Positions 1,293 to 50,392 of a DNA stretch of 59,031 nt are shown here, piece by piece; positions within the stretch are counted from its first letter, which is position 1, and each line of letters opens with the position of its first letter. This DNA comes from a virus. The stretch is taken from the IMG/VR virus record IMGVR_UViG_3300016474_000052, positions 1 to 59,031 of that record; one strand, 5' to 3'. Under the pieces are notes generated by a model, which ran no database searches, was not told the DNA's origin, and was given only the letters and a program-made list of their open reading frames with translations. The position numbers and the translations under genes are program-made.

Positions 1293-1892
1293 ATGAGTTT
1301 GCTATCCGGTTTTCATAAACACCATATAGTCCCGCGATACAGGGGTGGCGATAATTCGCCCGAAAACCTTGTGCTTTTGCACCCAATCGATCACGCTATT
1401 ACGCACTTGGTTCGCTTTAAGATATTTGGTCACCCTGCAGATGGATGGGCTTACAATCGCCTCATAAATGGCTTGAAGGACGAGCTTTTTCCAAATTTGA
1501 AAGGCGTGGCGAGGCCTTACATGAAAAAGCCTAAAACGCCAGAAATAAAAGCCAAAATGTCTGCATCGGCCAAGGGTAAGCCAAAGACCGCGGAGGCCAT
1601 AGAAAAGATGCGCAAGGCGCTTACTGGAAGGCCTGCCACGGAACTTCAACTTTCATGTCTTGCTCTTGGAAGAAGTCGGCCGGATGGTTATGTCAGCCCA
1701 TTAAAGGGGCAAAAAAGAGAGACGCCCTGGATGCTGGGCAGAGTTCCGGCTAACAAAGGCAAGAAAGCTTCGGATGAGTTAAAACAGCGCCTTTCAGATA
1801 TTAGAAAAGGTCGCAAGCAAACACCCGAACAAATTGCCAAACGCGTTGCTTCGCGTCGCGCAACTCTTGCATCGCAGGGTAGAGCCCGATAA
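1293..1892 (+). CDS. HNH homing endonuclease with NUMOD3-like DNA-binding repeats
   Basis: HKHHIVPRYRGGDNSPENLVLLHPIDHAITH is a classical H-N-H core. Followed by repeated K-G-K/R-x-x-S/T-x-E-x-x-x-K-x motifs (KGKPKTAEAIEKMRKAL, KGKKASDELKQRLSDIRKGRKQTPEQIAKR). Confidence 0.85.
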   Translation: MSLLSGFHKHHIVPRYRGGDNSPENLVLLHPIDHAITHLVRFKIFGHPADGWAYNRLINGLKDELFPNLKGVARPYMKKPKTPEIKAKMSASAKGKPKTAEAIEKMRKALTGRPATELQLSCLALGRSRPDGYVSPLKGQKRETPWMLGRVPANKGKKASDELKQRLSDIRKGRKQTPEQIAKRVASRRATLASQGRAR

Positions 1893-4772: not shown

Positions 4773-5942
4773 ATGACAACTCTTGTTCTTGACAGCACCC
4801 TAAAAACCATCAAGGTCAATATGGCCGGGTTGGCCACGACGACCAATCCGGACTTCACGGCTTCTTACGCTGACAACAATGGCGTGGTCTTCGCTGAAGG
4901 CGCAAACGATGGCGTCCTGAATGGCACGACTGATGTCACGGTTGTCGCGGCTCCTGCCTCTGGTTATCGACGGATCATCAAAAAGATCACGATCGAGAAC
5001 AAGGACACAGTCGCTAATACTGTCATTGTTAAGTACGACAACAACGGCACACAGCGGACGATCGCTCGAGTCACCCTGAATCCGAACGACACCTGGAGCC
5101 TTGAAGGCACGTTTGACAGCTTCGGCTCACTCAAGCAGACCCTAGGCGCGGTCAACGTCTCTACGGCAACTGGGACGCTCCCTGTGGCCAATGGCGGCAC
5201 TGGAGCAACTTCTCTGACGGCTAACAACGTTATTCTTGGTAACGGAACGGCAGCCGTTCAATTAGTTGCGCCAGGAACTCCCGGGAACGTCTTAACGTCT
5301 AACGGCACGACTTGGCAGAGCACTGCGCCAGCTTCATCCTTATCAAGCATTACGTTTGGCACCACAGGCTTAACGCCATCAACGCCCACTTCTGGCGCTG
5401 TTACGGTAGCAGGAACGCTTGCAGTCTCTAATGGTGGCACAGGGCTTACAGCGGGTAACTCAGGTGGTATTCCTTACTTCTCCGGAAGTTCGTCGATTGC
5501 AAGCTCTGCAGCCCTTACGCTTAACGCCCTTATGGTCGGTGGTGGAGCGGGAGCAGCGCCTTCGACAGTAACAACAGGGACCGGCGTCGTTACAGCCCTT
5601 GGCGTGAACGTAGGCACTGCAGGCGCATTTGTCGTCAATGGCGGCGCCTTGGGAACGCCCTCGGGCGGCACGCTAACCAATGCGACAGGTCTTCCACTGA
5701 CGACAGGGGTAACGGGCACACTAGCCTTTGGCAACGGCGGTACAGGGCAGACCAGCTATACAAATGGCCAACTGCTGATCGGTAACACCGCCACAGGGGG
5801 CTTGAGCAAGGCAACACTTACTGCAGGAACAAACATCACCATCACGAATGGTAATGGCACGATCACGATTGATGCAGCAGGTGGCGGCGGTGGCATTACA
5901 ACGGGCAAAGCAATCGCTATGTCGCTTATTTTCGGGTTCTAA
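4773..5942 (+). CDS. tail fibre-like protein sharing the C-terminal module of the 846-aa fibre
   Basis: 389 aa. Has four (A/S/G)NGGTG collar motifs. The C-terminal NGQLLIGN..ATLTAGTNITITNGNGTITIDAAGGGGG module parallels 4554-4760. Confidence 0.7.
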   Translation: MTTLVLDSTLKTIKVNMAGLATTTNPDFTASYADNNGVVFAEGANDGVLNGTTDVTVVAAPASGYRRIIKKITIENKDTVANTVIVKYDNNGTQRTIARVTLNPNDTWSLEGTFDSFGSLKQTLGAVNVSTATGTLPVANGGTGATSLTANNVILGNGTAAVQLVAPGTPGNVLTSNGTTWQSTAPASSLSSITFGTTGLTPSTPTSGAVTVAGTLAVSNGGTGLTAGNSGGIPYFSGSSSIASSAALTLNALMVGGGAGAAPSTVTTGTGVVTALGVNVGTAGAFVVNGGALGTPSGGTLTNATGLPLTTGVTGTLAFGNGGTGQTSYTNGQLLIGNTATGGLSKATLTAGTNITITNGNGTITIDAAGGGGGITTGKAIAMSLIFGF

Positions 5943-6324: not shown

Positions 6325-8898
6325 ATGCCAATCGACCGCAATACCGCCCAGTACATTACAGGCAACCCTCAGCAGCCCACGCAATCTTCTGCGCCGGGAA
6401 TCTGGGATATAGACGAGCAGGGCAGCGCTCAAGCTGCTGGCCGTTGGCCTTTGCCGCCTAATGTCGTACAGCGGAGCTTGAGGTTTAATAGTGCGGATAG
6501 TACAAATCTCACTAGAACCTTCACCGCAACTGGAGATCAGACGCGGTGGACTTGGAGTGGATGGGTAAAACGCAGTGCGCTTGGAGTAACCCAGGGATTG
6601 ATGTGGCGAAACAATCCGGGAGCCACCCCGCATGGCGGAATTCGGTTTGAAGGCAGCAACACTATTGTTGTTGGAACAGATAGGGGTGGGTCAAACTATT
6701 GGTTTTTTGGCACCACGGCTGTATTTAGAGATTTGTCAGCTTGGTATCACATCGTTGTTGTCCTGAATACATCCGAAGCAGTCCAAGCAGACCGTTGCAA
6801 AATATATGTAAATGGCATTCAACAAACAACAACAATTGGATCTGGAAATTCAACGCCATCGTTAAATGACACGATGGGTGGATTCAACTCTAATGTTCAG
6901 CACAACATTGGCGCTATGGACTCAACCGCCAATTCAAAATTTGATGGCTACATGGCCGAGGTCAACTTCATTGACGGCCAAGCCCTAACCCCATCATCGT
7001 TCGGCCAAACAGACGCACAAACAGGTCAGTGGATACCCCGAGTGTATTCGGGCAGTTACGGCACCACTGGCTTTAGGTTGCAGTTCCTTGATAACAGTGG
7101 AACGACTGCGACAACGCTTGGCAAAGACACATCGGGATTGGGTAATAACTGGACACCCAATAACTTCTCTGTAGCCGCAGGGACTGGTAATGACTCCTTG
7201 CGCGATGTGCCGATGAACTACTACAGCCCCGACAACGGCCTTGGTGGTGAGGTGATCGGGAATTACTGTACGCTGAATCCGTTGGCAGGAAGTACCACGG
7301 GGACCATAACTTATAGCAATGGAAACCTTGACTTTGTCCTTGATAGATCCGTTTCCAATCCGTGGGTAACCTCTACGTTTGCCATACCAACCTCGGGTAA
7401 ATGGTACTTTGAGGTGAGTCAAACTGCGGCGAACACGGGGACGACTCCATATGGATATGCTGGTTTAATTGATCTTGCTACGCTCCGTTCAAATGCAACG
7501 CCTACTGAAGTAAGGTCTTACATTTTTTCCAGCGGCAACAAAACAACAACATACGCAACATCAGGATCGGCGTATGGAAGTGCGGTTGCTTTGGGGGATG
7601 TTGTTGGCGCTGCTGTTGATATGGATGCAGGGACGATTGTCTTTTACAAAAACGGGGTGAGCCAAGGAACGGCATACACGGATCTTGTTACTTCCGGTAA
7701 AACCTGGGGGTTCAGCGCATTTTTGGGCGGCAATAATACAGGAACCTTTTGGGTCAACTTCGGCCAACGCCCATTTGCTTACGCCGCACCATCAGGATTC
7801 AAAGCCCTTTGTACGCAGAATTTATCGGCACCGAGAATCGGTAACGTCGCAGTAGCGCAGGCGAATGATTACTTCAATACTGTCATCTGGTCTGGCAATG
7901 GTTCTACGCAGTCTCCCACGATTGATTTTGCTCCTGATTTGGTTTGGGTCAAGAACAGATCGTCAAGCTGGTCTAACCTTCTATATGACACCTTGCGCGG
8001 ACCCAGTACGGGATCAACCAGCAAAGCTTTAAGCTCAAATGGAACTGATGCAGAAGGTGTCATTAACGACAATAGTACCTACGGCTATTTATCTGCTTTT
8101 AATTCCAATGGGTTTACGTTAACCGCAGGTTCTTATGTCGGCGCTGGGGGTTACACCAACACCTCTGGTCAAAACTATGTCGGCTGGTGCTGGAACGCTG
8201 GCGGCTCAACGGTTACCAATACATCCGGAACTATTACAAGCACAGTAAGAGCCAGTCAGACGGCTGGGTTCAGCGTAGTCCGATACACAGGCACGGGGTC
8301 GTCAGCTTCATTCGGTCACGGTCTTGGAGCGACACCACAGATAGTTATTATTAAATCCCTGGGAATAGAGGATTGGTTTTTTTATGCAGGCGGCATACTT
8401 GGAGGTTCTCCTCCTAATTATCTTAAGTTAAACACAACGTCAGCGGCAGGACCAAGTTCTAGTATTTTCCCGTCATTGGCAACATCTTCGGTCGTAAATA
8501 TAGGCGGCGGTTCCGGTGTTGGTGCAAACGGAGTCAATCATGTCGCCTACTGCTTCGCCGCAGTCCCAGGCTTCTCGGCTTTTGGTTCGTATACCGGCAA
8601 TGGCTCCACGGATGGTCCGTTTATTTACCTCGGGTTTAGACCGGCTTGGATCATGATAAAGCGTTCTGACGCCATAGAAAACTGGAACTTGTACGACAAT
8701 AAACGAACTCCTTACAATGTTGCGGACCTAGAGCTATATCCAAACCTTAGTAATAGTGAAGGAACTATTGCCGACAGAGATTTTTTGTCAAATGGTTTCA
8801 AAATCAGAAGCTCTAACGCAGGCAGAAATGCCAGTGGCGGCACCTACATCTACGCTGCCTTTGCAGAAATTCCCTTCCAGTTCGCTAACGCCAGATAA
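6325..8898 (+). CDS. fibre/receptor-binding-type protein with LamG (ConA-like) and SPRY domains
   Basis: 857 aa. LamG-like WYHIVVVLN..CKIYVNGIQQ..FDGYMAEVNFIDGQAL. SPRY signature SGKWYFEV..GYAGL..GDVVGAAVDMDAGTIVFYKNGVSQG..WVNFGQRPFAY. Confidence 0.7.
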   Translation: MPIDRNTAQYITGNPQQPTQSSAPGIWDIDEQGSAQAAGRWPLPPNVVQRSLRFNSADSTNLTRTFTATGDQTRWTWSGWVKRSALGVTQGLMWRNNPGATPHGGIRFEGSNTIVVGTDRGGSNYWFFGTTAVFRDLSAWYHIVVVLNTSEAVQADRCKIYVNGIQQTTTIGSGNSTPSLNDTMGGFNSNVQHNIGAMDSTANSKFDGYMAEVNFIDGQALTPSSFGQTDAQTGQWIPRVYSGSYGTTGFRLQFLDNSGTTATTLGKDTSGLGNNWTPNNFSVAAGTGNDSLRDVPMNYYSPDNGLGGEVIGNYCTLNPLAGSTTGTITYSNGNLDFVLDRSVSNPWVTSTFAIPTSGKWYFEVSQTAANTGTTPYGYAGLIDLATLRSNATPTEVRSYIFSSGNKTTTYATSGSAYGSAVALGDVVGAAVDMDAGTIVFYKNGVSQGTAYTDLVTSGKTWGFSAFLGGNNTGTFWVNFGQRPFAYAAPSGFKALCTQNLSAPRIGNVAVAQANDYFNTVIWSGNGSTQSPTIDFAPDLVWVKNRSSSWSNLLYDTLRGPSTGSTSKALSSNGTDAEGVINDNSTYGYLSAFNSNGFTLTAGSYVGAGGYTNTSGQNYVGWCWNAGGSTVTNTSGTITSTVRASQTAGFSVVRYTGTGSSASFGHGLGATPQIVIIKSLGIEDWFFYAGGILGGSPPNYLKLNTTSAAGPSSSIFPSLATSSVVNIGGGSGVGANGVNHVAYCFAAVPGFSAFGSYTGNGSTDGPFIYLGFRPAWIMIKRSDAIENWNLYDNKRTPYNVADLELYPNLSNSEGTIADRDFLSNGFKIRSSNAGRNASGGTYIYAAFAEIPFQFANAR

Positions 8899-8901
8899 GT
8901 C

Positions 8902-11900
8902 ATGAGCAAATTCACAGGCAATATCATCCGTCTCCCGGCGGTTACGCCGACTCAGAACTCAGCGTCGGGCGTTTACACACTTGATGACCAGTTCACCGCG
9001 CAGTCATCGGGAACATGGCCGATTGTTCGGGATCAATACTTCAACTACACCACGTTATTGCTGACAGGTGCAGTGCAGGGTACAGCCTATCCCAATCCCG
9101 TCACACAGCCCTACAGCTTTCTGTCGGATGCCAGTACGAATAACTTTGTTGTCTCGCCTTACGGTGACGTGAGTGCAAGACCGTTTAACCCGTATCTGAA
9201 TAGTTACAGCAATTATTTTACAGGCTCAGGATCAACGTATTTGAGTATTGCAAGCAGTGCTGATTTGCAGCTTACTAACTCAACAGTTTTTACGATAGAA
9301 GCGTTTATTTATTGGACTGGAACAACTGGAACTCAGCAAGGAATTATTAATAAACGTGGGTCATCAGCAACGCAAGAATGGGGTTTGATAATTAACTCCA
9401 CTGGGAAACTTGTATTTACGAACACAACGACAGATTACACTGGTGGAACAACATTAAATCAGAACCGATGGAATCATATTGCTGTTAGTTCAGACGGAAC
9501 TAACATAGCCGTATATTTGAATGGCTCAAGAGATAGCACACCTACGGCAGCTACAGGCATCGTTTCATCAACCAATGATGTTTTAATTGGTTATCAAACC
9601 ACAACGGCTAATCCTTATACGGGCTATATAAGTAACTTGCGTGTTGTGAAAGGAACGCAGCTTTATTCAGGAACCTCTTACCCAGTCCCCACCGCACCCC
9701 TGCAAGCAGTTACTAACACTTCCTTATTGACCTGTCTAAGCAATCGTTTTCTTGACACAAATACACAAACAACCGCTAAGACGATCACTGTTAGCGGCTC
9801 CCCCGCCGTCTCGCAAAATTCCCCATTTGTCAGTTACGACACGACCAATGGTAGTGGGTATTTTGATGGGAATGATTATTTACTTTCAACGGCAACGCAG
9901 GTCATTCCATCAGGCTCTTTTACTGTTGAAGCTTGGGCATATCCAACGGTAAGCACTGATGGATATATAGTGGCGCAAGGAACATCAGGAAATTCTGCTA
10001 GATTTGCGGTTGGCATAGAAACTAATGCTTGGTATACCCAGATTGGGGCAACTCGTGTCACAAGCACCGCAGCACCGGTAATTAACGCATGGACTCACGT
10101 TGCAGTAACTTTTAACGGCGCAACACTTACGCTTTATATCAATGGTCAGTCGGTTGGCACTCCCGCATCTACATCAACTAATGCACAAAATGCAACGGTA
10201 AGAATAGGATCGCTTGGACCTGCTGATTGGGCTGCGCTATATTGGACTGGTTATATCAATTCTGTTCGTGTTTCAAATACTGTACGCGCTATTTCTGTGC
10301 CGACGGCTCCATACACCACAGACGCTAACACCTCCCTCCTCACCCTCCAAACTCGCGCTCCAGCGACGAACAACGGTTTTATTGACAGCAGTCCTAACAA
10401 CTTTGTCGTCACGAGAAATGGGAATACGACGCAGGGATCGTTTAGTCCGTTCAGTCAGACTGGGTGGGGGAATTATTTCAACGGGAGTAGCAATCTTCAG
10501 TTAGCGCAAACGTCTGCTTTTCAGCCCGGAACCGGAGACTTTACAATTGAAGCGTGGGTGAATTTCTCGGCCAGCAACAGCATGATTATTGCTGTTTATA
10601 ACCAAGGCTGTGCTTTTTATGTGAAGTCAACAGGATTTCTAGCTTTTGCCCAGGATTCAGTTGCTGAACGATTGGTGGCAAGCACTGCGTTTCCATTAAA
10701 TCAGTGGAATCATGTTGCAGTTGTAAGAAGTTCATCAAACTTGACAATTTATCAAAACGGAACTGCGGTCGGATCAACTGCAAATTCCAATAATTTAACT
10801 GGGATTGGCTCTACTGTAACTGTTGGATCTGGTAACGCTTTAACACAAGGGGCAACTGGTTATATTTCCAATATTCGGTTTGTAAACGGCCAAGCCCTGT
10901 TTACAGGTGCGTTCACGCCATCGGTTGCGCCAATTAATTCAACCACGGTCGGATCAACCGGCTCTGGGGTTCCCACCCAAACCATTACCGGGACTGTTGC
11001 ATTACTTACCTGTCAATCCAACCGGTTCAAGGACAATAGCCCAAACAATTACACGATAACCCTTGGAGGCTCACCCTCCGTCCAAGCCTTCTCCCCCTTC
11101 GCACCAGCGCAATCCTACATACCAAGTCAGATCGGTGGCAGCGGGTATTTTGATGGGACGACGGATTATTTGACGACTCCGGCAAGCAGCATTTTTGATT
11201 TCGCAGCAGGTCAAGCCTTTACTGTTGATTTCTGGTTCTACCAGACAACATCCGCGACTGTTGCCATTACGCAGGGTGGTGGAAACACATTTTCAATTGA
11301 CGTTACGATGGGCAGCAGCGGTTCCATCAATTACGGAAAAGCTGGGGTTGCAAACATCATTTCCGCTTCGGCTTCAATTCCTATTAGTAGCTGGAATCAT
11401 CTGGTGATTTCAAGGAATACCGGCAACCAAAGCAGGATGTGGCTTAATGGTGTTTCAATCGGATCAAGCAGTTCCGACAGTTACTCGTTTAATAATGCGG
11501 TGCAATATATAGGTTCAAACGCCAACCCCGGCAACTATGTAACGGGCTACCTAAGTGGATTTCGTGTTCTCAAAGGTACGGCGCTTTACGATCCAACTTC
11601 ATCAAGCAATATCACAGTCCCCACCGCCCCACCAACAGCCATACCCAACACCTCTCTCCTACTCAACTTCACGAATGGCGGGATTGTAGATGCCACTGGG
11701 AAGAATAATCTGGAGACGGTGGGTAATAGCGGGGTGCAGACAACCGTCATCAAGTATGGCAACGGGTCAATGTATTTTGATGGGACGAGTGATTATTTAC
11801 TTAGACCGTATAGTGATCTCTTAAATATAAATTCAGGTGATTTCACTATTGAAGCTTGGGTGTATCCGACCGTTAATAAAACCTTTAGCACAGTCGCGGC

Positions 11901-36151: not shown

Positions 36152-36241
36152 GTACCATTCAACGGGCATGGCTACCTCGACGGAGGGAAAAGCGGTCTCT
36201 TCACCCGCCTGCCAACGCCCAACCTCAGTGAAGACGACCTT

Positions 36242-36913
36242 ATGAAGAAAGGTTTAGGTATGCACTTTTACCCCCACCATATCGGGGACTTTTTGAAGGA
36301 CACCTCGTCCTTAACACCCGAAGAGTCCTACTACTATCTGCGGCTTATTTGGCTGTACTACGACACCGAAAAGCCGCTCCCAGATGACATTACAAGCCTT
36401 GCTTTTAAGATTGGAGCACGAGGTAAGGAGGATTGCGTTCGGAGTCTGGTTCAGATCTATTTCACATACGATTCAGATCTGAAATCACATACGCATCAGA
36501 GGATTGACTTGGAAATTAAGAAGTACCAAGCCAAGGCAGCTTCTGCAAAGCGTGCGAATCAGATCCGTTGGGAAGCTGAAAAGGATCTGAAATCAGATCT
36601 GAAATCAGATGCGGAACAGATCCCAACCAAGAACCAAGAACCAAGAACCAATAAAGACAAAGGGCTTGCAGGCAAGCCTGATGAAGTGTCCGATCAGATC
36701 TGGTCCGATTTCTTGAGGGTTCGCAAGGCTCATAACGCACCGATTACGAAAACCGCCCTGGCCAAGATCATCGTGGAATCCGTAAAAGCCAACCTGACCG
36801 TCGAGGAGGTCCTGAAGCTTTGCGTTGAAAAGAACTGGCGCGGGTTCGAAGCTGAATGGCTTAAAGACAAGAAGGGTCCTAAGCCCCTTGACCAATTTGC
36901 AGGTGCGCTATGA
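36242..36913 (+). CDS. DUF1376 (YdaU-like) replication-module protein containing iteron-like repeats
   Basis: HFYPHHIGDFLKDTSSLTPEESYYYLRLIWLYYDTEKPLPDD is the DUF1376 signature. The start may instead be ATG 36260. Lies upstream of the helicase. Confidence 0.7.
   Translation: MKKGLGMHFYPHHIGDFLKDTSSLTPEESYYYLRLIWLYYDTEKPLPDDITSLAFKIGARGKEDCVRSLVQIYFTYDSDLKSHTHQRIDLEIKKYQAKAASAKRANQIRWEAEKDLKSDLKSDAEQIPTKNQEPRTNKDKGLAGKPDEVSDQIWSDFLRVRKAHNAPITKTALAKIIVESVKANLTVEEVLKLCVEKNWRGFEAEWLKDKKGPKPLDQFAGAL
36451..36691. repeat. cluster of TCAGATC(T/C) iteron-like repeats plus (AACCAAG)x3-AACCAAT; candidate replication origin
   Basis: TCAGATC(T/C) at 36451, 36474, 36559, 36592 and 36684. Variants: GGATCTGAAATCA at 36583, TCAGATG at 36604 and ACAGATCC at 36616. 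Heptamer tandem at 36625-36652. Confidence 0.5.
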
Positions 36914-38149: not shown

Positions 38150-38213
38150 ATTAATTGATGGCTACCTTTAGCGGGGGAAAAGTCGCTTCATCACCGACCT
38201 GCCATCAATTAAT
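38150..38213. repeat. 13-bp perfect inverted repeat (ATTAATTGATGGC / GCCATCAATTAAT) separated by 38 nt
   Basis: Arms at 38150-38162 and 38201-38213, ending 2 nt before the HNH ORF. Preceded by a T7 run at 38134-38140. Confidence 0.8.
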
Positions 38214-38215
38214 TT

Positions 38216-38620
38216 GTGATGACTTCTACCTTGATGGGGTACGACATGATCGATTTATCCAGCCCTTGCATCGTTGGCATTGGTGAAAAAACCAGGCTTG
38301 GTTATATCCGCCTTTGGAATGGAGGCAATAGAATTCTCGCTCACCGCGCAGAATTTATAAAAAAAATAGGCCCTATTCCGGAAGGTTTAGAGATCGACCA
38401 TTTATGCCATAACAGATCTTGTATCAATGTTTTGCATCTAAAGCTTACAACTCATAAAGAAAATAGTCGCCGCCGTGTTAATTCAAAATTAACGATTGAA
38501 CAGGTGGAGAAAATAAGAATTATGCTTCTTAATGGTATGTCCTTAAAAAAAATTGCAGACAATTTTAATGTCAGCAAGCAAATGATTTGGTTGATAGCGA
38601 AAGGAAAGCAATGGAACTGA
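38216..38620 (+). CDS. HNH endonuclease (HNH_3-type) with C-terminal HTH
   Basis: AHRAEFIKKIGPIPEGLEIDHLCHNRSCINVLHLKLTTHKEN is the HNH_3 signature. C-terminal MSLKKIADNFNVSKQMIWLI HTH. Low-GC segment (21/60 G+C at 38461-38520, counted by hand). Confidence 0.8.
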   Translation: MMTSTLMGYDMIDLSSPCIVGIGEKTRLGYIRLWNGGNRILAHRAEFIKKIGPIPEGLEIDHLCHNRSCINVLHLKLTTHKENSRRRVNSKLTIEQVEKIRIMLLNGMSLKKIADNFNVSKQMIWLIAKGKQWN

Positions 38621-43428: not shown

Positions 43429-43872
43429 ATGCCAGCAGGAAGACCGACCGACTACAAGCCCGAATATTGCGAACTGGTTATCAAGATGGGCCGCCAAGGT
43501 AAGAGCAAGGCTCAGATCGCCGCGACCATAGGGGTGACGAGAAAGACCATGTGGACTTGGTGCTCCGTCCACGAAGAATTTCTAAACGCCATAGAGTATG
43601 CAGAGGAATTAGCCCTGCAATGGTGGGAGGATATAGCCCAGGATCACCTGAAGCAGACCAAGGATGGGGTGACGCTGAACACCTCGCTCTGGTCCCGCTC
43701 GATGGCTGCAAGATTCCCTAAGGACTACACCGACCGGACAAAGCATGAAGTCACCGGCAAGGATGAAGGACCGCTCCAGGTTGACGTTGTTATGGACGTC
43801 GCACAATCACTGATCGATGAATTGACCGGCATCCGCCAGCATGCTGACAGCAAGTCAAGCAAAGCGGATTGA
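43429..43872 (+). CDS. terS: terminase small subunit
   Basis: MPAGRPTDYKPEYCELVIKMGRQGKSKAQIAATIGVTRKTMWTWCSVHEEFLNAIEYA.. is the typical HTH-type TerS N-terminus. Directly upstream of terL. Confidence 0.85.
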   Translation: MPAGRPTDYKPEYCELVIKMGRQGKSKAQIAATIGVTRKTMWTWCSVHEEFLNAIEYAEELALQWWEDIAQDHLKQTKDGVTLNTSLWSRSMAARFPKDYTDRTKHEVTGKDEGPLQVDVVMDVAQSLIDELTGIRQHADSKSSKAD

Positions 43873-45271
43873 AGCCAAGCTTGCCCTGCATCAGGAGTTG
43901 CTGAAGAAGCTACCTCCGGAGGCATCAGCAGCCTTCTACGCCAGGATGAAGTGGCTCATGAGGGCCCACTCTCACCAGATCCCGCCTAAAGGCGACTGGT
44001 GGACGATATGGCTTCTTCTTGCAGGAAGGGGCGCAGGCAAGACCAGGACGGCTGCAGAAGACGTCTGGCATACAGCCTGGACGACGCCAAACATCCGCAT
44101 CTTGATCTCGGGGCCGACCTCGGCAGACATCAGAGATACGATGATTGAGGGCGAGTCAGGGCTGCTTAACTGTATGCCCGAGGAGATCCGGGTGAAGTAC
44201 ACGAGGAGCCTGCATGAGATCGTGCTTACGAATGGCTCCCTGATCAAAGGCATACCAGCATCAGAACCCGAGCGCTTCCGGGGTCCGCAATGGCATACCG
44301 CATGGCTAGATGAACTCGCAGCCTGGGAGTATCTGGACTCAGCCTGGGACCAGATCATGTTCTCGGTCCGTTTGGGCAATAAGCCAAGAATCATAATTAC
44401 CACTACGCCTAAGCCTAAGCCCTTGATCATTGACCTGCTAGACCGGGAAGGCGAAGACGTCATCGTTACCAAGGCGTCGACCTACGACAACCTTGCCAAC
44501 CTCGCCGGGACGTTCAAGCAGCAGATCTTGCAGTACGAGGGAACCTCTTTAGGACGTCAGGAGATCCACGCTGAGATCATCGACCCCGAAGAGGCTGGGA
44601 TCATCAAGCGCAACTGGATCAAGCTCTGGCCATCAGATAAGCCCTTCCCGCGGTTTGAGTTCGTTGTGCAGTCCTATGACGGCGCCTATACCGAGAAGAC
44701 CATCAACGACCCCTCAGCTTGTAGCGTATGGGGAATCTTCAAGCCCAGCGAAGACAAAGGCTTCTGTGCCATGCTGATCGACTGCTGGGAAGAGCACCTG
44801 CAGTACCCGGACTTAAAGGAGAAGGTCATTGAAGACTTTGGCACGGTTTACGGGGACCCCAATGAATTTGGACAAGGCAAGAAGACTGACTTGGTTCTGG
44901 TTGAAGACAAGTCCTCCGGCATCTCCCTCCTGCAGGACCTGGGGCGTGCCCACATACCCTGCAGGTCATACAATCCCGGGGGCGCCGACAAAGTCCAGCG
45001 GGTCAACCTGATTGCGCCACTGATCAAGGCAGGCAAGGTCTACATCCCTGAGAGCACGAAGAACGAAGATCATCCCAGGTCTTGGGCTGAGCCGCTCGTT
45101 AACCAGCTATGCGCCTTCCCTGAAGTCAGGCATGACGACCTCGTGGATACCGTCTCTCAGGCCTTGCGAGTCCTTCGAGACATGGGCTGGCTGAATATTG
45201 ATCCACCGCCACCAGACGATGATGTTTACGCTGAAGACAGACCTAAGCGGGTGAATCCGTATGCGGCTTGA
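43841..45271 (+). CDS. terL: terminase large subunit
   Basis: Walker A LLAGRGAGKTR, Walker B AWLDELAAW, C-terminal nuclease motif HDDLVDTVSQAL. 476 aa. Confidence 0.9.
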   Translation: MLTASQAKRIEAKLALHQELLKKLPPEASAAFYARMKWLMRAHSHQIPPKGDWWTIWLLLAGRGAGKTRTAAEDVWHTAWTTPNIRILISGPTSADIRDTMIEGESGLLNCMPEEIRVKYTRSLHEIVLTNGSLIKGIPASEPERFRGPQWHTAWLDELAAWEYLDSAWDQIMFSVRLGNKPRIIITTTPKPKPLIIDLLDREGEDVIVTKASTYDNLANLAGTFKQQILQYEGTSLGRQEIHAEIIDPEEAGIIKRNWIKLWPSDKPFPRFEFVVQSYDGAYTEKTINDPSACSVWGIFKPSEDKGFCAMLIDCWEEHLQYPDLKEKVIEDFGTVYGDPNEFGQGKKTDLVLVEDKSSGISLLQDLGRAHIPCRSYNPGGADKVQRVNLIAPLIKAGKVYIPESTKNEDHPRSWAEPLVNQLCAFPEVRHDDLVDTVSQALRVLRDMGWLNIDPPPPDDDVYAEDRPKRVNPYAA

Positions 45272-45640
45272 GCATAGCCCTCTCCTTACTAAGTTACGGT
45301 ATAGGTTAGAAACCTATCCAACGGAGGGTTCCGGGCGAAGGGAGGCCCAACCCCAGAGAATGAGGTTTGGGTCCGCCCTCAGCTATCCACTCGGATGGGA
45401 CACGCTGCTCGGCTCACAAGACGGTGCGCTTGTAAGCTGGACTCTGCAACCCCTTGCACCAGGGTCAAGTTCCCACCAGAGTCTTCGGCATGGCCGCGGC
45501 TTGAACTTCATCCTACCGCTCTCGCATAGCACCGGATCGTGACTGTGGACGCCTGTCTTGCTATGCCAGTTATCGGTTTCGGCTGGGTTCTGAGTCCCAC
45601 TTGGGTCACAGCTAACTTTGGTCTGTGATCCGTGATGCCA

Positions 45641-45739
45641 ACAAAAAAGCCACTTACTGCTGCGTCTGGTCGAAGTCCCTCGGTTAAGAGGGCAGACGCA
45701 TGAGTAAGTGGCCTTACAGTTGTTGACTTCGACGACAAC
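45641..45739 (-). ncRNA. candidate ~100-nt small RNA transcribed against the late operon
   Basis: Bounded by a - strand promoter (45774-45746) and a long hairpin (45712-45649) followed by UUUUUUGU (45648-45641). No start codon lies downstream of the predicted TSS. Confidence 0.4.
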
Positions 45740-45745
45740 GACGCA

Positions 45746-45774
45746 ATCATAGTGCTCATGGATAGACTTTGCAA
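45746..45774 (-). promoter_or_regulatory. sigma70-like promoter on - strand (TTGCAA-N17-TATGAT)
   Basis: -35 at 45774-45769, 17-nt spacer, 5/6 -10 at 45751-45746. Confidence 0.45.
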
Positions 45775-45791
45775 GCCCTACTGGGTATCAT
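45763..45791 (+). promoter_or_regulatory. sigma70-like promoter on + strand (TAGACT-N17-TATCAT) ahead of the structural genes
   Basis: 4/6 -35, 17-nt spacer, 5/6 -10. Lies 25 nt upstream of ATG 45816 and overlaps the - strand promoter back-to-back. Confidence 0.35.
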
Positions 45792-45815
45792 CCCTACAAA
45801 CTCCCGGGGATACCT

Positions 45816-47375
45816 ATGCCTAATCCACTTGGTGGGCTGCAAAAGGTTATGGCCAAGATGGCTGCTAACCAGAAGGTTCAGTCCGCACTCCCAAAGGCTC
45901 CGCCGCCAGCAAGCGAAATCCTTAAGCCGGATCTCATGCGTGTTTACTCTGGCCAGCGAGAGCCCATCGAAGGAAAGTTCGACATCTCAAGGGCAGATCC
46001 TCACGCCTCAATGGGTCGAGCCTTCTACACGGCAGAGCTTCCCCGGTACGCTAATAAGTTCACAGGCAATCAGCCTGGAGCTAACGTCACGCCCGTTGAT
46101 GTCGATCGCAATCGCCTGCTGATGTTCGACAGGATGTACGACACGCCTCAAGGCAAGATGGAAGGCCTCGACTACTACGACCTTCTGCGCAGGCAGGCCA
46201 TGGCCAAGCCAGGAGTCGGCAAGGACATGATCCGCAAGGAGATCCTAGACGCTGGCTTTGCAGGCACTGAGATGCCTAACGCTACTGGCAAAGCGTATGC
46301 AATTTACGACACCAGCGCAGCGCAAGACATGTCTGGCCAAGCCTTTCGAGAGGGAGGCCTTGCCATGGCCAGCGGTGGCCTTGCACGCAGAGCGGCAAAG
46401 GCAGCTTTCAAAGCCCTGCCCGGAGAAAGCTTCCAGGGTAAGACAGGCACCGACATGCCCTCAGATGTTGAGCGGCGCATCATGGAGATCAACAGGCCCA
46501 ACCTGATCCTGCCGTCCGAAGCTTTGGGTAAGCACGAAGGCAAGACGCTGATGATCACCCAGGCTGACAGGACTAAAGTAGGCGAGGGCTTTCTTGGTGG
46601 CCCAGGCTTCTCGAGCCTTCAGCTAACTGATCCACGTTATGCCGAGGCTGCATGGGGCGTTAAGACGCCTGGAGTCGCTCAGACCATTGCAGGATCTAAT
46701 CGCCGCGTACCTGAAGGCCAAGCGATCTGGACGACCATGCTCGGAACACCGACGCAGCACAAGTCAAACCAGATGGTCTTTGACCGCCTCTACAAGGAAT
46801 TCATGGGCGGTATCAAGCAAGAGAAGCTCTCGCCTGAACTCAAGGACACCCTGAACGCAAAGCTTGCCTCAGTGGTCGATAAAGAAGGCAAGAACCTATT
46901 CCCGGAAGACGTCGACATTACGAACCCCAGGAAGTTCCGCAAGCTTGTCGACACCTTCGATAAACGTGCAGCCGCTGCTGACGTCATGGGCGGTATCGGC
47001 GTTGGCGGTAAGAAGGGCCAGATCTTCGACTACGACCGGATCATTCAGCGCACGACAGACCCAGCGCTTTTAGACACCCCGACGGGTTCGCTTGGCAACC
47101 GCCTCTTCCAGTTAAGCGGCGAAGTCATGGACAGGCCTGACCTTCACCCAGCCTTCCCGACCATCCTCAAGGGCGAGGACCTCGGCGTTAACTTCACGCC
47201 CGCTCCCCGTGAATTGCTCATGGAAGACTTCATCAACAAGGTCCTTACCGAGAAGGGCAGACAGCCTGGATACATGGACTGGACTCGAGGCTATGCGCCA
47301 TCCCAGTTCCTGTCGGAAGAACTGCTTACCAAGCTTCAAAAGGCTGGTTACAAAAAAGGCGGTCGAGTCAAATGA
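45816..47375 (+). CDS. large virion-module protein; N-terminal domain paralogous to the ART-like domain of the next gene
   Basis: 519 aa. RVYSGQREPIEGKFDISRADPHASMGRAFYTAELPRYANKF aligns with AYHGSPHRFKKFDASKIGTGEGAQAYGYGLYFAENPDVAKTY in 47372..50392. C-terminus KKGGRVK. Confidence 0.5.
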   Translation: MPNPLGGLQKVMAKMAANQKVQSALPKAPPPASEILKPDLMRVYSGQREPIEGKFDISRADPHASMGRAFYTAELPRYANKFTGNQPGANVTPVDVDRNRLLMFDRMYDTPQGKMEGLDYYDLLRRQAMAKPGVGKDMIRKEILDAGFAGTEMPNATGKAYAIYDTSAAQDMSGQAFREGGLAMASGGLARRAAKAAFKALPGESFQGKTGTDMPSDVERRIMEINRPNLILPSEALGKHEGKTLMITQADRTKVGEGFLGGPGFSSLQLTDPRYAEAAWGVKTPGVAQTIAGSNRRVPEGQAIWTTMLGTPTQHKSNQMVFDRLYKEFMGGIKQEKLSPELKDTLNAKLASVVDKEGKNLFPEDVDITNPRKFRKLVDTFDKRAAAADVMGGIGVGGKKGQIFDYDRIIQRTTDPALLDTPTGSLGNRLFQLSGEVMDRPDLHPAFPTILKGEDLGVNFTPAPRELLMEDFINKVLTEKGRQPGYMDWTRGYAPSQFLSEELLTKLQKAGYKKGGRVK

Positions 47376-50300
47376 ATCCGCTGACTAAGTTCCTAGGTGT
47401 TAAAGGCCTATCCAACGGTGGAAAGTTACCACCGGGCATTAAACGCGCTACAGACCGCGCTAAGGAAAGCAAGAGCGTATTGCCTGTTGCGGGTGCCAGA
47501 CAAGCACGGCAAGCTATTCAGGGTTATCTGGGCATGGACCCCAGCTTCAGCGTCATGGACCCTGAGGCTCAGGCACTCGAGTCAGCCTACCGCGGTGGCG
47601 AGACTGCAAGTGTGCTCGGCGATCTCGTTGCAAGCCTGACGCCATTTGCCGCCGCCTCGGCCGCCGCTAAGGCCAATCAAGTTCCAGGCCTTGCGCAACT
47701 GATTGCTTACCATGGCTCACCACACAGGTTCAAGAAGTTCGACGCCAGCAAGATCGGCACGGGTGAAGGTGCCCAGGCTTATGGCTATGGGCTGTACTTT
47801 GCTGAGAATCCTGATGTAGCAAAAACATATCAGCCACGATCCCCTCAGTACGAACAAAAACTGTTAAAAAAGTACAACGCAGCAGAAGCAAGAAGAGACT
47901 ACACGACCATGGAGATCCTTGAGGATGCCATGATGCACAGGTCTCCAGAGGAAATTCTGCAACGGTATACGAATATCAGCGAAGGGTATACCCCGGCGCA
48001 TGCAAAAGCCGCCAAAGACTTTGCGAGTTGGTATGCGAAAAACTTGCCCGAGGTCGGAGGGATGTACAAGGTTGACATCCCAGATGAAAAGATTGCTCAG
48101 ATGCTTGATTGGGATAAGCCACTGAGCCAGCAGCCAGCGGCCATGCAGGTTGCAAGAAAAGTTTTCAACGACCCACAGCGGAAATCGGCTGGGTTTCCAA
48201 GCATTACAGATGAAGAGATCGGCAACTTGACTGGGCAGGATTTGTATCAGGCCATGACCACCACCAGGGGTGGTTTGCAGCCTGGCGCATCCAAATCATT
48301 GTTGCAAGAGGGTATACCTGGCATTCAGTACCTTGACCAAGCCTCCCGCGATGCAAAGCAAGGCACCCGCAATTTCGTTGTGTTCCCTGGCGAAGAGCAA
48401 AACATCAAGATGCTTGATATTGATGGTGTCCCCCAAAAGGCTGACGGTGGTCTAATCCGCATGAGCAATGGCGGCGATCGCTTCATGGGCAAGACGCCCA
48501 AGCGAGGCGTCTCTTCGCTTCCTGGTTACGGCGAAGGCGATCTCTTGAAGGACATCGAAGCCGCCTACCCAAGGGTGGCAGGAGCCATAGACACAGCGGC
48601 AACGCTTGCACCTATCTTTGGCCGCGCTCTGGTATCTCCTGCTGTCAGCGCAGGGACCTTCGTTAAGGAAGCAATCAAGAGCGGCGACCCTCGAGACACC
48701 AGCCCCTTGCAAAGGGCAAGCGAAGCCTCTGAGGAGTTCATTACAGGCGATATAAGGCCCTTCAGGACCCAGCTTGGCCCTGAGTATGCCTCGGCCACAT
48801 TAGAAGGCCTTGAGAGCGCTTTACAGGCCTCTAAGCTGCCACCAATCCTCCCGCAAGCATGGACAGCGTCGCTCATGCCTGGAGTGACAGCGGCAACAAA
48901 GCAAGCGGCAAAAACTGCCGGCAAGGAAATGCTTAGGCCGATCGACCAAGCCATGATGGGCCAGGGCCCGCTTGCTGGTGCGTTCAGTGCTGTTTCGCCC
49001 ATGAACGTCACGGCACCGGTTAGCAAGCTTGGCTTTTACAACCCGATCGAAGAGACGGCCACTACCTTGCAGCGCAAGCAAGGACCAGGGCAGGCCTTCC
49101 TCAACGAGTTCACCAAGGCAGGCATCAGCAAGCAGCGTCTCGAAGATGCAGGCCTAGCTCAGAAGCTTGCTGCCGCGCCCAACATCACGCGTGAAGAGGT
49201 CCAGGCCATGACCAAGGGCACCATGCCCGACGTCGAGGAAGTGGTCCTGAGCAGATCTGTCATACCACCCTACATGAAAGGGTTTGCCAACCTGCATATG
49301 CCAGACCTGAATGTCAATGACTACAGGCAGATCAATCAGTTGCGCAAGATTGCCGATGAGCGTTATCAAAAGGCCCTTGCGGAAAACGATTTGGACGCGG
49401 CTGAGTTTGCGATGAAGGCCGAAGAGGACATCAACAAGTTCAGCCGGACCCACAGCTATGGCACCAAGCCTGGGGAGCGGCTGACTGAATTTCACGAGTA
49501 TCAAGAGCCTGGGGGCAAGAACTACCGCGAGGTCTTGCTCAAAGTACCGGTTAAAAGGGTCAGCGAGGAAGAGGCGCGGGTAATCTTAAATGCTCGACCT
49601 GAAGATAAGCTAAGTGCTTACGACATTGACTTCGCCTCGCGTAAGGCAAATCCTGAGTTTCGATCGGCGCACTGGATGGACCCCAACGTCATATCCCATA
49701 TCAGGATGAATGACCGTGTGGACGCCGACAACAAGAACGTGCTTTTCATTGAAGAGCTTCAGTCTGACTGGGCGCAAGAAGGTCGCAAAAAAGGTTTTGG
49801 CAAGGATGTTCCGCAAGGACCTTTCGTTAAGAACACTAACGAGTGGGTTGACCTATCGCTGAAAAACATCATCAAGCGTGCAGTCGATGAGGGCTACGAC
49901 CGCGTTGCGTTCATTGACGGCTACAAGTCCTACCTGCGCTTTCCGCAAGGTGCCGATGGCGAGTCCACTGAAGCAGGGATGCGCAAGTTTTACGACGAGA
50001 TTATCCCCGGCAGGCTCAAGGCCTTGGTGGGCAAGGACAATGTCCGGACCATCCCCGGCATCACGCAACAGCGACCACTTGATGTTTCGTTGCAAGGCGA
50101 TCGGTACTACGTGGTCGACGCCGACACCGACATTGCGATACCAGATCATCCTGGATTCCGAAGCCTTGAAAGGGCCGAGCAATACCTTGACGAGTTGTAC
50201 AGCAAGTCAAAGTCCATGGACCAGATCGGCTTTGACATCACGCCTGAGATCCGTGAGAAATTCAGTGCCCCTATCCCGTATAAACGTGGAGGGGCCGTAA

Positions 50301-50392
50301 AGTCCTCCAAGAGCCGTCCCTTGAATCGAATGCAAGTTGACACCGACGCTATGCGTCTTGAAATGATGAGGAAATCATGGCGATCGAAATGA
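47372..50392 (+). CDS. polyvalent-type large virion protein with PARP/ART-like (H-Y-E class) motif block
   Basis: 1006 aa, directly upstream of the portal. YHGSPHRFKKF..GEGAQAYGYGLYFAENPDVAKTY resembles the H-G-[ST] .. G-x-G-x-Y-F-A .. Y motifs of PARP-like ARTs. Also carries a conserved-looking LFIEELQSDWAQEGRKKGF block. Confidence 0.5.
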   Translation: MNPLTKFLGVKGLSNGGKLPPGIKRATDRAKESKSVLPVAGARQARQAIQGYLGMDPSFSVMDPEAQALESAYRGGETASVLGDLVASLTPFAAASAAAKANQVPGLAQLIAYHGSPHRFKKFDASKIGTGEGAQAYGYGLYFAENPDVAKTYQPRSPQYEQKLLKKYNAAEARRDYTTMEILEDAMMHRSPEEILQRYTNISEGYTPAHAKAAKDFASWYAKNLPEVGGMYKVDIPDEKIAQMLDWDKPLSQQPAAMQVARKVFNDPQRKSAGFPSITDEEIGNLTGQDLYQAMTTTRGGLQPGASKSLLQEGIPGIQYLDQASRDAKQGTRNFVVFPGEEQNIKMLDIDGVPQKADGGLIRMSNGGDRFMGKTPKRGVSSLPGYGEGDLLKDIEAAYPRVAGAIDTAATLAPIFGRALVSPAVSAGTFVKEAIKSGDPRDTSPLQRASEASEEFITGDIRPFRTQLGPEYASATLEGLESALQASKLPPILPQAWTASLMPGVTAATKQAAKTAGKEMLRPIDQAMMGQGPLAGAFSAVSPMNVTAPVSKLGFYNPIEETATTLQRKQGPGQAFLNEFTKAGISKQRLEDAGLAQKLAAAPNITREEVQAMTKGTMPDVEEVVLSRSVIPPYMKGFANLHMPDLNVNDYRQINQLRKIADERYQKALAENDLDAAEFAMKAEEDINKFSRTHSYGTKPGERLTEFHEYQEPGGKNYREVLLKVPVKRVSEEEARVILNARPEDKLSAYDIDFASRKANPEFRSAHWMDPNVISHIRMNDRVDADNKNVLFIEELQSDWAQEGRKKGFGKDVPQGPFVKNTNEWVDLSLKNIIKRAVDEGYDRVAFIDGYKSYLRFPQGADGESTEAGMRKFYDEIIPGRLKALVGKDNVRTIPGITQQRPLDVSLQGDRYYVVDADTDIAIPDHPGFRSLERAEQYLDELYSKSKSMDQIGFDITPEIREKFSAPIPYKRGGAVKSSKSRPLNRMQVDTDAMRLEMMRKSWRSK

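Follow-up and report, generated by a model that had tools for sequence, protein, structure and literature searches.

The 59,031-nucleotide stretch of viral DNA analysed here (the window) contains, between the large terminase gene, terL, and the next structural gene, a non-coding gap that is probably the ORF-less remnant of a mobile cassette, in which a promoter, a structured leader RNA and an HNH endonuclease gene were inserted in antisense orientation. The life cycle of free-standing homing-endonuclease cassettes is well established, and we favour this reading because the insert is patchily present at a fixed junction, is found in either orientation, carries its own promoter, has HNH cargo in relatives and appears in graded states of decay. 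The RNA that it retains belongs to a family in which a pseudoknotted terminator sRNA is combined with interchangeable modules of 250–330 nt, and which occurs in > 80 contigs of uncultured phages, lake and river metagenomes being the origin of many.

The gap (45272–45815, about 544–545 nt) runs from the terL stop at 45271 to the ATG at 45816, and is flanked as follows.

43841–45271, + strand: terL (large terminase), the upstream flank, with Pfam Terminase_6N and Terminase_6C.
45783–45815, + strand: translation-initiation region of the next gene, with a GGUAUC/GAUACC hairpin and the Shine–Dalgarno (SD) sequence GGGGA.
45816–47375, + strand: downstream flanking gene, an ORF call of 519 aa, family not assigned (no match in Pfam or PHROG).

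An earlier reading of the sequence alone had singled out this interval as lacking a credible ORF in a genome whose genes otherwise abut or overlap. Both parts of that description held. In a crude gene call, the median junction in the rest of the genome is 0 nt and the other gaps are all ≤ 206 nt; none of the ORFs inside the gap matches Pfam, and the frame open across module A is not kept in relatives. The coordinates given in that reading were all correct when rechecked against the sequence. It had also named an assembly artefact as the outcome under which the whole finding would fall; because the same 544 nt are present, letter for letter, in a separate Logan assembly (SRR6423809), the gap is not such an artefact.

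A terL query retrieved 41 related IMG/VR loci. In 21 of these, whose terL is 89–94% identical to that of the window, there is no gap, and the next gene starts about 10–15 nt past the terL stop. Among the 41, inserts are confined to the closest terL clade (98% identical), where they differ both in size (545 nt in the window, 434 nt in L001/L002, 619 nt in L003/L032) and in content. The inserts of the window, L001 and L003 are unrelated, their common part being the last 31–78 nt before the ATG of the next gene; the window gap shares only 31 nt with L001, in the next-gene initiation region, and 78 nt with L003. A fourth, different insert occupies the terL junction of locus L152, which belongs to another terL lineage. 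Cassettes at the terL junction of other relatives thus differ and lie in either orientation, and the terL/next-gene junction is, as judged from these alignments, a polymorphic insertion site and a recombination hot spot.

This pattern bears on the proposal, raised in the sequence-only reading, that the gap is the packaging (pac/cos) site, and equally on the possibility of a replication origin. The position adjoining the terminase genes and the many inverted repeats are all that such a DNA-level site has in its favour. An essential packaging site would be expected to be conserved among phages that share a terminase, and the patchy presence and replacement of the insert among close relatives argue against one: the region is missing from phages with 89–94% identical terL, and unrelated sequence takes its place in phages with 98% identical terL. 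Furthermore, homologous modules occur in the early regions of other phages, and their G–U pairs and compensatory changes point to an RNA made from one strand. We therefore regard a DNA-level site as very improbable. Absence of the spacer from close relatives had also been named as a result that would count against an RNA locus. The spacer is indeed absent from most terL relatives, but its RNA modules are conserved at other loci.

Because modules A, C and B2 are all conserved on the minus strand, positions 45323–45739 (about 417 nt) are, on comparative grounds, one conserved minus-strand RNA. Its parts, together with the adjoining promoter-like sites, are listed here in the direction of the RNA.

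45763–45791, + strand: promoter-like site TAGACT-17-TATCAT, back-to-back with the next and carrying the TATCATCC motif (scan; relatives).
45774–45746, − strand: sigma-70-like promoter of the RNA, TTGCAA-17-TATGAT (promoter scan; homologues).
45640–45739, − strand: module A, an sRNA/attenuator-like RNA of ∼97 nt with a 5' hairpin, a long terminator hairpin and a U6 run (covariance model, covariation, folding).
45726–45733, − strand: S1 (GUCGAAGU), within the loop of the 5' hairpin; it pairs with S1'.
45713–45649, − strand: terminator hairpin, closed by GGCC..GGCC, with the U6 run (45648–45643) directly after it.
45669–45676, − strand: S1' (ACUUCGAC), an 8-nt bulge on the 3' side of the terminator hairpin and the complement of S1.
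45566–45631, − strand: module C, a UCACAG/CUGUGA hairpin (45628–45606) and the invariant GUGGGACUCAGAACCCAGCC (45600–45581) (covariation).
45323–45565, − strand: module B2, a structured RNA body with a conserved, anti-SD-like 3' end, ..GGAACCCUCC (homologues, compensatory pairs).
45289–45322, − strand: spacer between the conserved RNA and an SD, including a small hairpin (45301–45317), with a partial counterpart in L209 but none in L151.

Homologues of module A are present in > 45 phage contigs, and pattern searches turned up almost identical copies in settings otherwise unrelated to the window (L047 in viral contigs, L146–L152 in metagenomes). The 100-nt RNA 45739–45640 folds with −46 kcal/mol (z = −7.2 against shuffles). 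The minus strand has the G+C-rich stem and directly following U-run of an intrinsic terminator, the + strand has no U-run, and the U-run is present in all module A homologues; the long minus-strand hairpin and U-run picked out by eye in the earlier reading are therefore real, being both unusually stable and conserved. The terminator rule of our promoter/terminator scan did not call hairpin 45713–45649, because its loop and stem exceed the limits of the scan.

A covariance model, R2, built from 11 homologues with the window sequence in the seed, found one copy only in the window, at 45634–45778(−), with 156.6 bits (E = 2.6e-40), and gave 148–168 bits on the independent loci L047, L148 and L151. 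In the alignment of 11 module A sequences, 98% of cells are paired and 12 pairs have changed on both sides. The covariation observed was reached in 0 of 500 shuffles, and sliding the pairing partners by 1–3 columns abolished the signal. The 5' hairpin, h1, is weakly supported, with 87% of cells paired and no both-side changes. The minus-strand hairpin of the window also resembles a + strand hairpin in L001, and its outer stem co-varies. Module A is always followed on its 3' side by further conserved RNA. These co-varying stems bear out the view that the locus is non-coding and specifies a structured RNA.

S1 and S1' are exactly complementary in the window, a pairing that had been missed when the sequence was first read. 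The resulting pseudoknot helix is 100% paired, and four of its eight pairs co-vary within the closest subgroup. In an alignment guided by the model and made with no reference to the pseudoknot, all 121 of 121 cells of the helix are canonical. By scan, eight exact-complement versions of S1/S1' were identified across 47 loci, and at least five more were seen by eye, including those of the L001-type and L056-type subgroups; copies that are nearly identical elsewhere often differ mainly in S1/S1'. When we looked for a trans target of S1/S1', no other site in the window was complementary to the exposed 9-mer. Two further candidates, both assessed by eye, were rejected. An extension of S1 that could act as an antiterminator by pairing with the terminator's 3' strand (GCGUC/GACGC) is present in the window and not in L047 or L125, and so is no family feature; segments of the B modules considered as a third target box of the P4 kind failed to co-vary with S1.

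The promoter scan of the region gave three promoter-like sites where 0.7 would be expected. The minus-strand promoter matches the consensus at 9 of 12 positions, and in all 20 module A members checked, which span three subgroups, a sigma-70-like promoter ends 12–13 nt upstream of S1. These promoters differ in sequence among members and mostly match the consensus at 8–10 of 12 positions (seven in L114). Because the distance is fixed, we place the start site about 5–6 nt before S1, near 45739, which gives an RNA of ∼97 nt. Homology, the fixed promoter spacing and stem covariation thus back the minus-strand promoter-to-terminator unit that had been proposed; that it is actually transcribed, we infer.

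The + strand TAGACT-17-TATCAT site, previously noted by eye, was recovered by the scan, and is identical in L003 and near-identical in L152. Its TATCATCC motif is common to all insert-bearing junctions and missing from insert-free ones. It may belong to a promoter through which the downstream gene regains its expression; alternatively, it may form part of the hairpin in the initiation region of that gene, because it aligns also with the 3' end of another module, B1 (the 3' strand of its last helix). The B1 model, R1, gave its only hit here, an alignment of its ends with 45768–45824(+) at 5.9 bits.

Downstream of module A, the stem of module C co-varies with UUGCAG/CUGCAA in L148, L150 and L209, and the exact 20-mer GUGGGACUCAGAACCCAGCC recurs in 56 IMG/VR stretches. 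The TCACAG/CTGTGA stem (45606–45628) of the earlier reading is accordingly conserved and co-varying, and belongs to module C; the ATAGGTT/AACCTAT stem at 45301–45317 is present but not conserved. The B2 body matches L151, L166, L195 and L209 (E = 1e-36 to 1e-67), and its fold has z = −3.2; L151 is contig SXGQ01477667.1, and L209 is IMGVR_UViG_3300046804_000823. Comparison with L151 (about 86% identity over the conserved stretch) revealed eight compensatory pairs and several changes from G–C to G–U. No pair of a shared helix is broken, the one gapped pair lying past the conserved 3' end, beyond the L151 alignment. B2 forms many G–U pairs, on the minus strand only. The intactness of B2 relative to L151 indicates selection within the family, and not necessarily on the ORF-less window copy. 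At its 3' end is the anti-SD-like CCUCC, with an SD downstream.

Downstream of module A, most IMG/VR homologues have B1, a module of ∼270 nt with compensatory changes in 20 of 41 predicted pairs (alignment A3) and no reading frame that is open or conserved throughout the family. With filters off, model R1 detected no B1 in window positions 44800–46300. The idea that B2 is a divergent B1 was rejected, since R1 with filters off is silent on B2 yet detects the distant B3 module of L003/L028.

A conserved coding frame in relatives would have overturned the RNA reading, and two frames in the gap are open: a 93-aa + strand ORF (45261–45542) and an 88-aa minus-strand ORF (45508–45774). However, neither has a Pfam match, and the 88-aa frame begins at the −35 hexamer and passes through the terminator. 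A 1-nt indel in L150 shifts this frame within module A and leaves the RNA helices intact, no frame stays open across the related B1 family, and substitutions compensate within helices. With the frames broken in relatives by the L150 indel and within the B1 family, we rejected a conserved small ORF within the RNA, and we consider it scarcely credible that the gap encodes a small protein.

The contexts in which the RNA occurs are varied. A+B units lie in early regions, after small nuclease genes (L047, L148, L150 and L151), at the terL junction in sense (L001, L042, L046 and L094) or antisense orientation (the window, L003/L028 and L152), and alone, with no ORF on the same strand (L054 and L149). 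The 3' end of B1 frequently holds the SD and AUG of the next ORF. Besides nuclease genes of the HNH type, A+B units lead into PD-(D/E)xK-like, ParB-like and metallophosphatase genes; because units stand alone or precede such other genes, the RNA may have a function of its own beyond that of a leader.

The linkage to HNH genes is most direct for the A–C–B2 arrangement found in the window. In L166, an A–C–B2 RNA and an SD are followed by a 215-aa HNH endonuclease (core ...CQCCG...VDHIKPRK...CNHGKGN...); in L195, the same RNA precedes the first 167 residues of this protein. In L209 the first about 40–43 residues of the downstream ORF match the N-terminal domain of the HNH protein, and the locus ends inside the gene. 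Among the 53 C-bearing loci with ≥ 900 nt downstream, 25 have, within 1.6 kb and on the same strand, a homologue of this HNH protein, 10 of which match residues 1–53 (the N-terminal domain) only; the other 28 are without this HNH family downstream.

Identity between the window and L209 is about 95% over the stretch that begins with the promoter and includes UAAGGAGA (45288–45282). Past this SD the window diverges from L209 into the reverse complement of the terL end, which leaves two further features at the edge of the gap.

45282–45288, − strand: orphan SD (UAAGGAGA region), which in L209 stands before the UUG start of the HNH gene.
45272–45281, no strand: deletion/recombination junction, ∼10 nt between the terL stop and the start of L209 homology (window/L209 alignment).

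Because homology to L209 stops just after the SD, it is the HNH gene that is missing from the window. The orphan SD is followed only by a 10-codon ORF (AUG at 45275–45273), antisense to the terL end, and no homologue of this HNH protein was found anywhere in the window. A possible intermediate is offered by L003/L028, in which the similarity of a 55-aa ORF to the 143-aa HNH protein of L148 is limited to the N- and C-terminal ends (E = 7e-3 and 9e-4). This ORF resembles an HNH gene with its core deleted, and would represent an intermediate state of decay. The loci fit a putative series that leads from full-length HNH (L166 and L195, with at least the ORF start in L209) through the core-deleted form (L003/L028) to no ORF at all (the window and L152).

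The window locus thus shares with mobile cassettes a patchy presence at a fixed site among close relatives, and homologous cassettes elsewhere carry the nuclease (L166 and L195; in L209 its start only). Because no endonuclease ORF is encoded in the window itself, we class the locus as a remnant and not as a member of the group.

We propose the following course of events for a cassette of this kind. The sigma-70-type promoter (45774–45746) would direct an RNA of about 417–420 nt, from a start near 45739 to 45323. In module A, the S1 loop would pair with the S1' bulge of the terminator hairpin, after which comes the U6 run. Most transcripts would stop at the U6 run and yield a stable small RNA, so that module A would act both as a promoter-proximal attenuator and as the source of that sRNA. 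Transcripts that read through would continue via C and B2 to the anti-SD-like CCUCC and the SD, and C and B2, by ending in CCUCC upstream of the SD, would gate nuclease translation. From its start codon onwards, the nuclease gene appears to have been deleted in the window, where any read-through would run antisense into the 3' end of terL.

In relatives the SD starts an HNH endonuclease gene, and for this reason we consider a cis role of the RNA most likely, namely that of an attenuator and leader by which expression of a selfish nuclease would be limited and timed. This differs from the suggestion of the sequence-only reading that the locus is a dedicated antisense regulator of the late operon, which fits poorly with the finding of the RNA in early regions and in both orientations elsewhere, and with its place as an HNH leader in relatives. 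An antisense effect of putative read-through on the 3' end of terL is nevertheless possible.

A plausible but unlikely reading is that the RNA is an autonomous functional non-coding gene, comprising a trans-acting sRNA and a larger structured RNA, and kept for its own function as moron-like cargo. Such an RNA might exert antisense control over the transcript that runs from terL into the next gene, or might regulate host or phage targets. This reading stays plausible because ORF-less units recur (L054, L149 and L152 besides the window) and because all helices of the window copy, like its promoter and terminator, are intact. In addition, the RNA is complementary to the late mRNA in its intercistronic part, any read-through would be antisense to terL, and the rapid change of S1/S1' between nearly identical flanks is what would be expected of a specificity determinant. 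On the other hand, the window has no second site complementary to S1 or S1', most close relatives live without the element, and its orientation relative to the late genes is inconsistent (sense in L001, antisense in the window). Moreover, since the nearest homologue, L209 (about 95% identical), retains the HNH start, loss of the ORF in the window was recent, and intactness of the RNA need not mean function.

Homing-endonuclease cassettes are known to degenerate after fixation, and the window copy might have gone further, to an inert relic that, transcribed or not, has lost all activity. The core-deleted HNH in L003/L028, the complete loss of the ORF in the window and the lack of conservation in the 50 nt adjoining terL are consistent with this. 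We think it unlikely, given that the helices tested in A, C and B2 are all free of disrupting substitutions in the window copy, and that the promoter still matches the consensus at 9 of 12 positions.

A more speculative extension of the cassette reading, to which we give little credence at present, is that the A/C/B RNAs form a riboregulatory or RNP layer on homing endonucleases. S1:S1' might then be an intermolecular code, serving in immunity of the P4/c4 type or in multimerization of the pRNA/ROOL type, or the large modules might be partners or sensors that license the HNH protein. If this were true, it would add a new layer to homing endonucleases, and the ORF-less window copy could act in trans on the cassettes of co-infecting phages.

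The search against Rfam that had been recommended for this locus gave no match to the gap. With Rfam 15, the whole window returned at the gathering threshold only two int-alpA hits, both outside the gap; the gap at E ≤ 10 gave noise only (mir-3119, Plant_SRP and EBER2), and the homologous loci gave nothing over the element. ARAGORN found no tRNA or tmRNA in the window. A BLAST search of 50,697 GenBank phages gave no match to the gap or to the A+B1 unit of L047, the closest cultured or deposited terL being only 57% identical, and modules A, B1, C and B2 are all without a match in GenBank phages and Rfam 15. The B1 core gave chance or coding hits only (e.g. dihydroorotate dehydrogenase) in 185,579 species-representative genomes, with no clue to the host, and we found no description of this RNA family in the literature on int-alpA and in phage structured-RNA surveys.

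In kind, then, the locus is known: a homing-endonuclease cassette remnant and phage sRNA unit. What is new, as far as the matches in Rfam 15 and GenBank phages go, is this family of RNAs, along with a pseudoknotted terminator whose pairing code varies fast. A 2023 catalogue of structured RNAs from IMG/VR lists 8495 motifs with a mean length of 67 nt and no functional description (PMC10690425); its candidates come from the same data source and are likewise conserved phage intergenic RNA structures, many with terminators or upstream of genes, and its unnamed motifs may overlap with this family. On the reading proposed here, a puzzling non-coding interval among tightly packed genes is the trace left by a mobile nuclease cassette. 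For experiments, both the covariance models and the series of S1/S1' specificities are usable starting material.

Several known phage RNAs resemble the element in part. The lambda oop RNA, the lambda 6S/PR' transcript and StxS are promoter-proximal terminated phage small RNAs, and share with module A a constitutive-looking promoter, an RNA of ∼100 nt, an intrinsic terminator and possible antisense relations to neighbours. Unlike them, module A has a loop–bulge pseudoknot and is followed by more RNA, and there is no homology in sequence or structure. The P4 CI RNA and the c4 RNA of P1/P7 (RF01695) are also operon-leader small RNAs with an exposed segment complementary to a site within the leader, and their specificity sequences also vary between related elements. 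In contrast, our family has no match to this Rfam entry and just two boxes, both inside the module A sRNA, with no third target box of the P4 CI/c4 type found downstream of module A; moreover, those RNAs serve in immunity, a role that would be hypothetical here. In phi29 pRNA (RF00044), as in module A, a hairpin loop complements an internal bulge and the two co-vary, and some copies of our element lie beside packaging genes. However, there is no Rfam match, the phages concerned have classical terS/terL, and most copies are in early regions.

HEARO, the omega-RNA of IscB (RF02033), is similar in being a large structured RNA directly upstream of an HNH ORF in a mobile element. The present family differs in having no Rfam match, in HNH proteins of 143–215 aa with no RuvC domain, in an RNA that contains an internal promoter and terminator, and in B modules that are swapped among cassettes with the same HNH family; because of this swapping, a fixed RNP scaffold is unlikely.

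The closest parallel is with phage free-standing homing endonucleases, exemplified by the seg and mob genes of T4 and by HNH enzymes, among which RNA hairpins occlude the ribosome-binding site at mobE and I-TevI. As with these genes, we see presence/absence polymorphism at one junction of conserved genes, a promoter belonging to the element, insertion in either orientation, HNH cargo in relatives and states of decay. The differences are that the window copy is without an endonuclease and that the same leader modules also precede non-HNH genes. As at mobE and I-TevI, an RNA structure adjoins the SD, but the leader here is ∼420 nt long, modular (A, C and interchangeable B) and conserved by covariation, and so goes well past a plain RBS hairpin. 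If this RNA does gate nuclease expression, no homing endonuclease would be known to have a more elaborate regulatory leader, and the element would offer a handle on how selfish genes avoid harming their carrier.

The RNA modules can exist separately, since module B1 stands without an upstream module A in two of the related loci, L053 (7440-7717) and L127 (9033-9306), where it lies directly 3' of an ORF and a small hairpin. Two copies of the core of module C occur on a single viral contig, L165, at 1741-1760 (minus strand) and 9795-9814 (plus strand), about 8 kb apart and in opposite orientations. The int-alpA RNA motif (Rfam RF02996) may be an additional module of the leader system to which B1 belongs, because in L047 it sits (7448-7515) with module B1 on one side and a further HNH gene on the other. 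The window itself contains this motif twice:

36165-36234, plus strand: int-alpA motif, upstream of a DUF1376 replication-type gene (36242-36913)
38155-38222, plus strand: int-alpA motif, adjoining the 5' end of the HNH_3 homing-endonuclease gene (38216-38620)

Reading frames that match only part of an HNH protein also accompany the RNAs. A K/R-rich ORF of 55 aa is found 3' of the RNA in the L003 gap (minus strand) and in L028 (about 5430-5600), and its similarity to the 143-aa HNH protein of L148 is limited to the N- and C-termini of the latter. It looks like an HNH gene from which the catalytic core has been deleted; its stop codon overlaps that of terL, tail to tail. Residues 1-53 alone of the 215-aa HNH protein, the endonuclease encoded downstream of the A-C-B2 RNA in L166, were matched on the same strand downstream of module C in 10 C-bearing loci:

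L161, L163, L164, L179, L181, L183, L188, L201, L203 and L204: N-terminal-only HNH homologues

These are either a separate small protein with a common N-terminal domain or another truncated form.

In the insert-free relatives L004-L030, the gene following terL begins MPNP, as does the 519-aa gene of the window (45816-47375), and compared with the latter it carries roughly 110 additional residues immediately behind the N-terminus, so that this gene is itself variable in its N-terminal region. The stop of the 519-aa gene is overlapped by 4 nt by the gene that follows:

47372-50392, plus strand: protein of 1006 aa; its matches to the ADP-ribosyltransferase domains found in polyvalent proteins (ART-PolyVal, DUF3990) are all weak and lie below threshold

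Among deposited sequences the nearest relative is L153 (MW202545.1), the genome of an uncultured member of the Caudoviricetes from Manatee Spring, and it has no gap after terL. A 476-nt gap that carries no annotation does separate its terS from its terL (2429-2904), and a search of this gap with R1, the covariance model of module B1, gave no match.

All B2-like RNAs, those of the window (45323-45332), L149, L151, L152, L166, L195 and L209, terminate in (A)ACCCUCC. In the window and L209 a Shine-Dalgarno sequence follows 35-60 nt 3' of that end, which is itself similar to the anti-Shine-Dalgarno tail of 16S rRNA.
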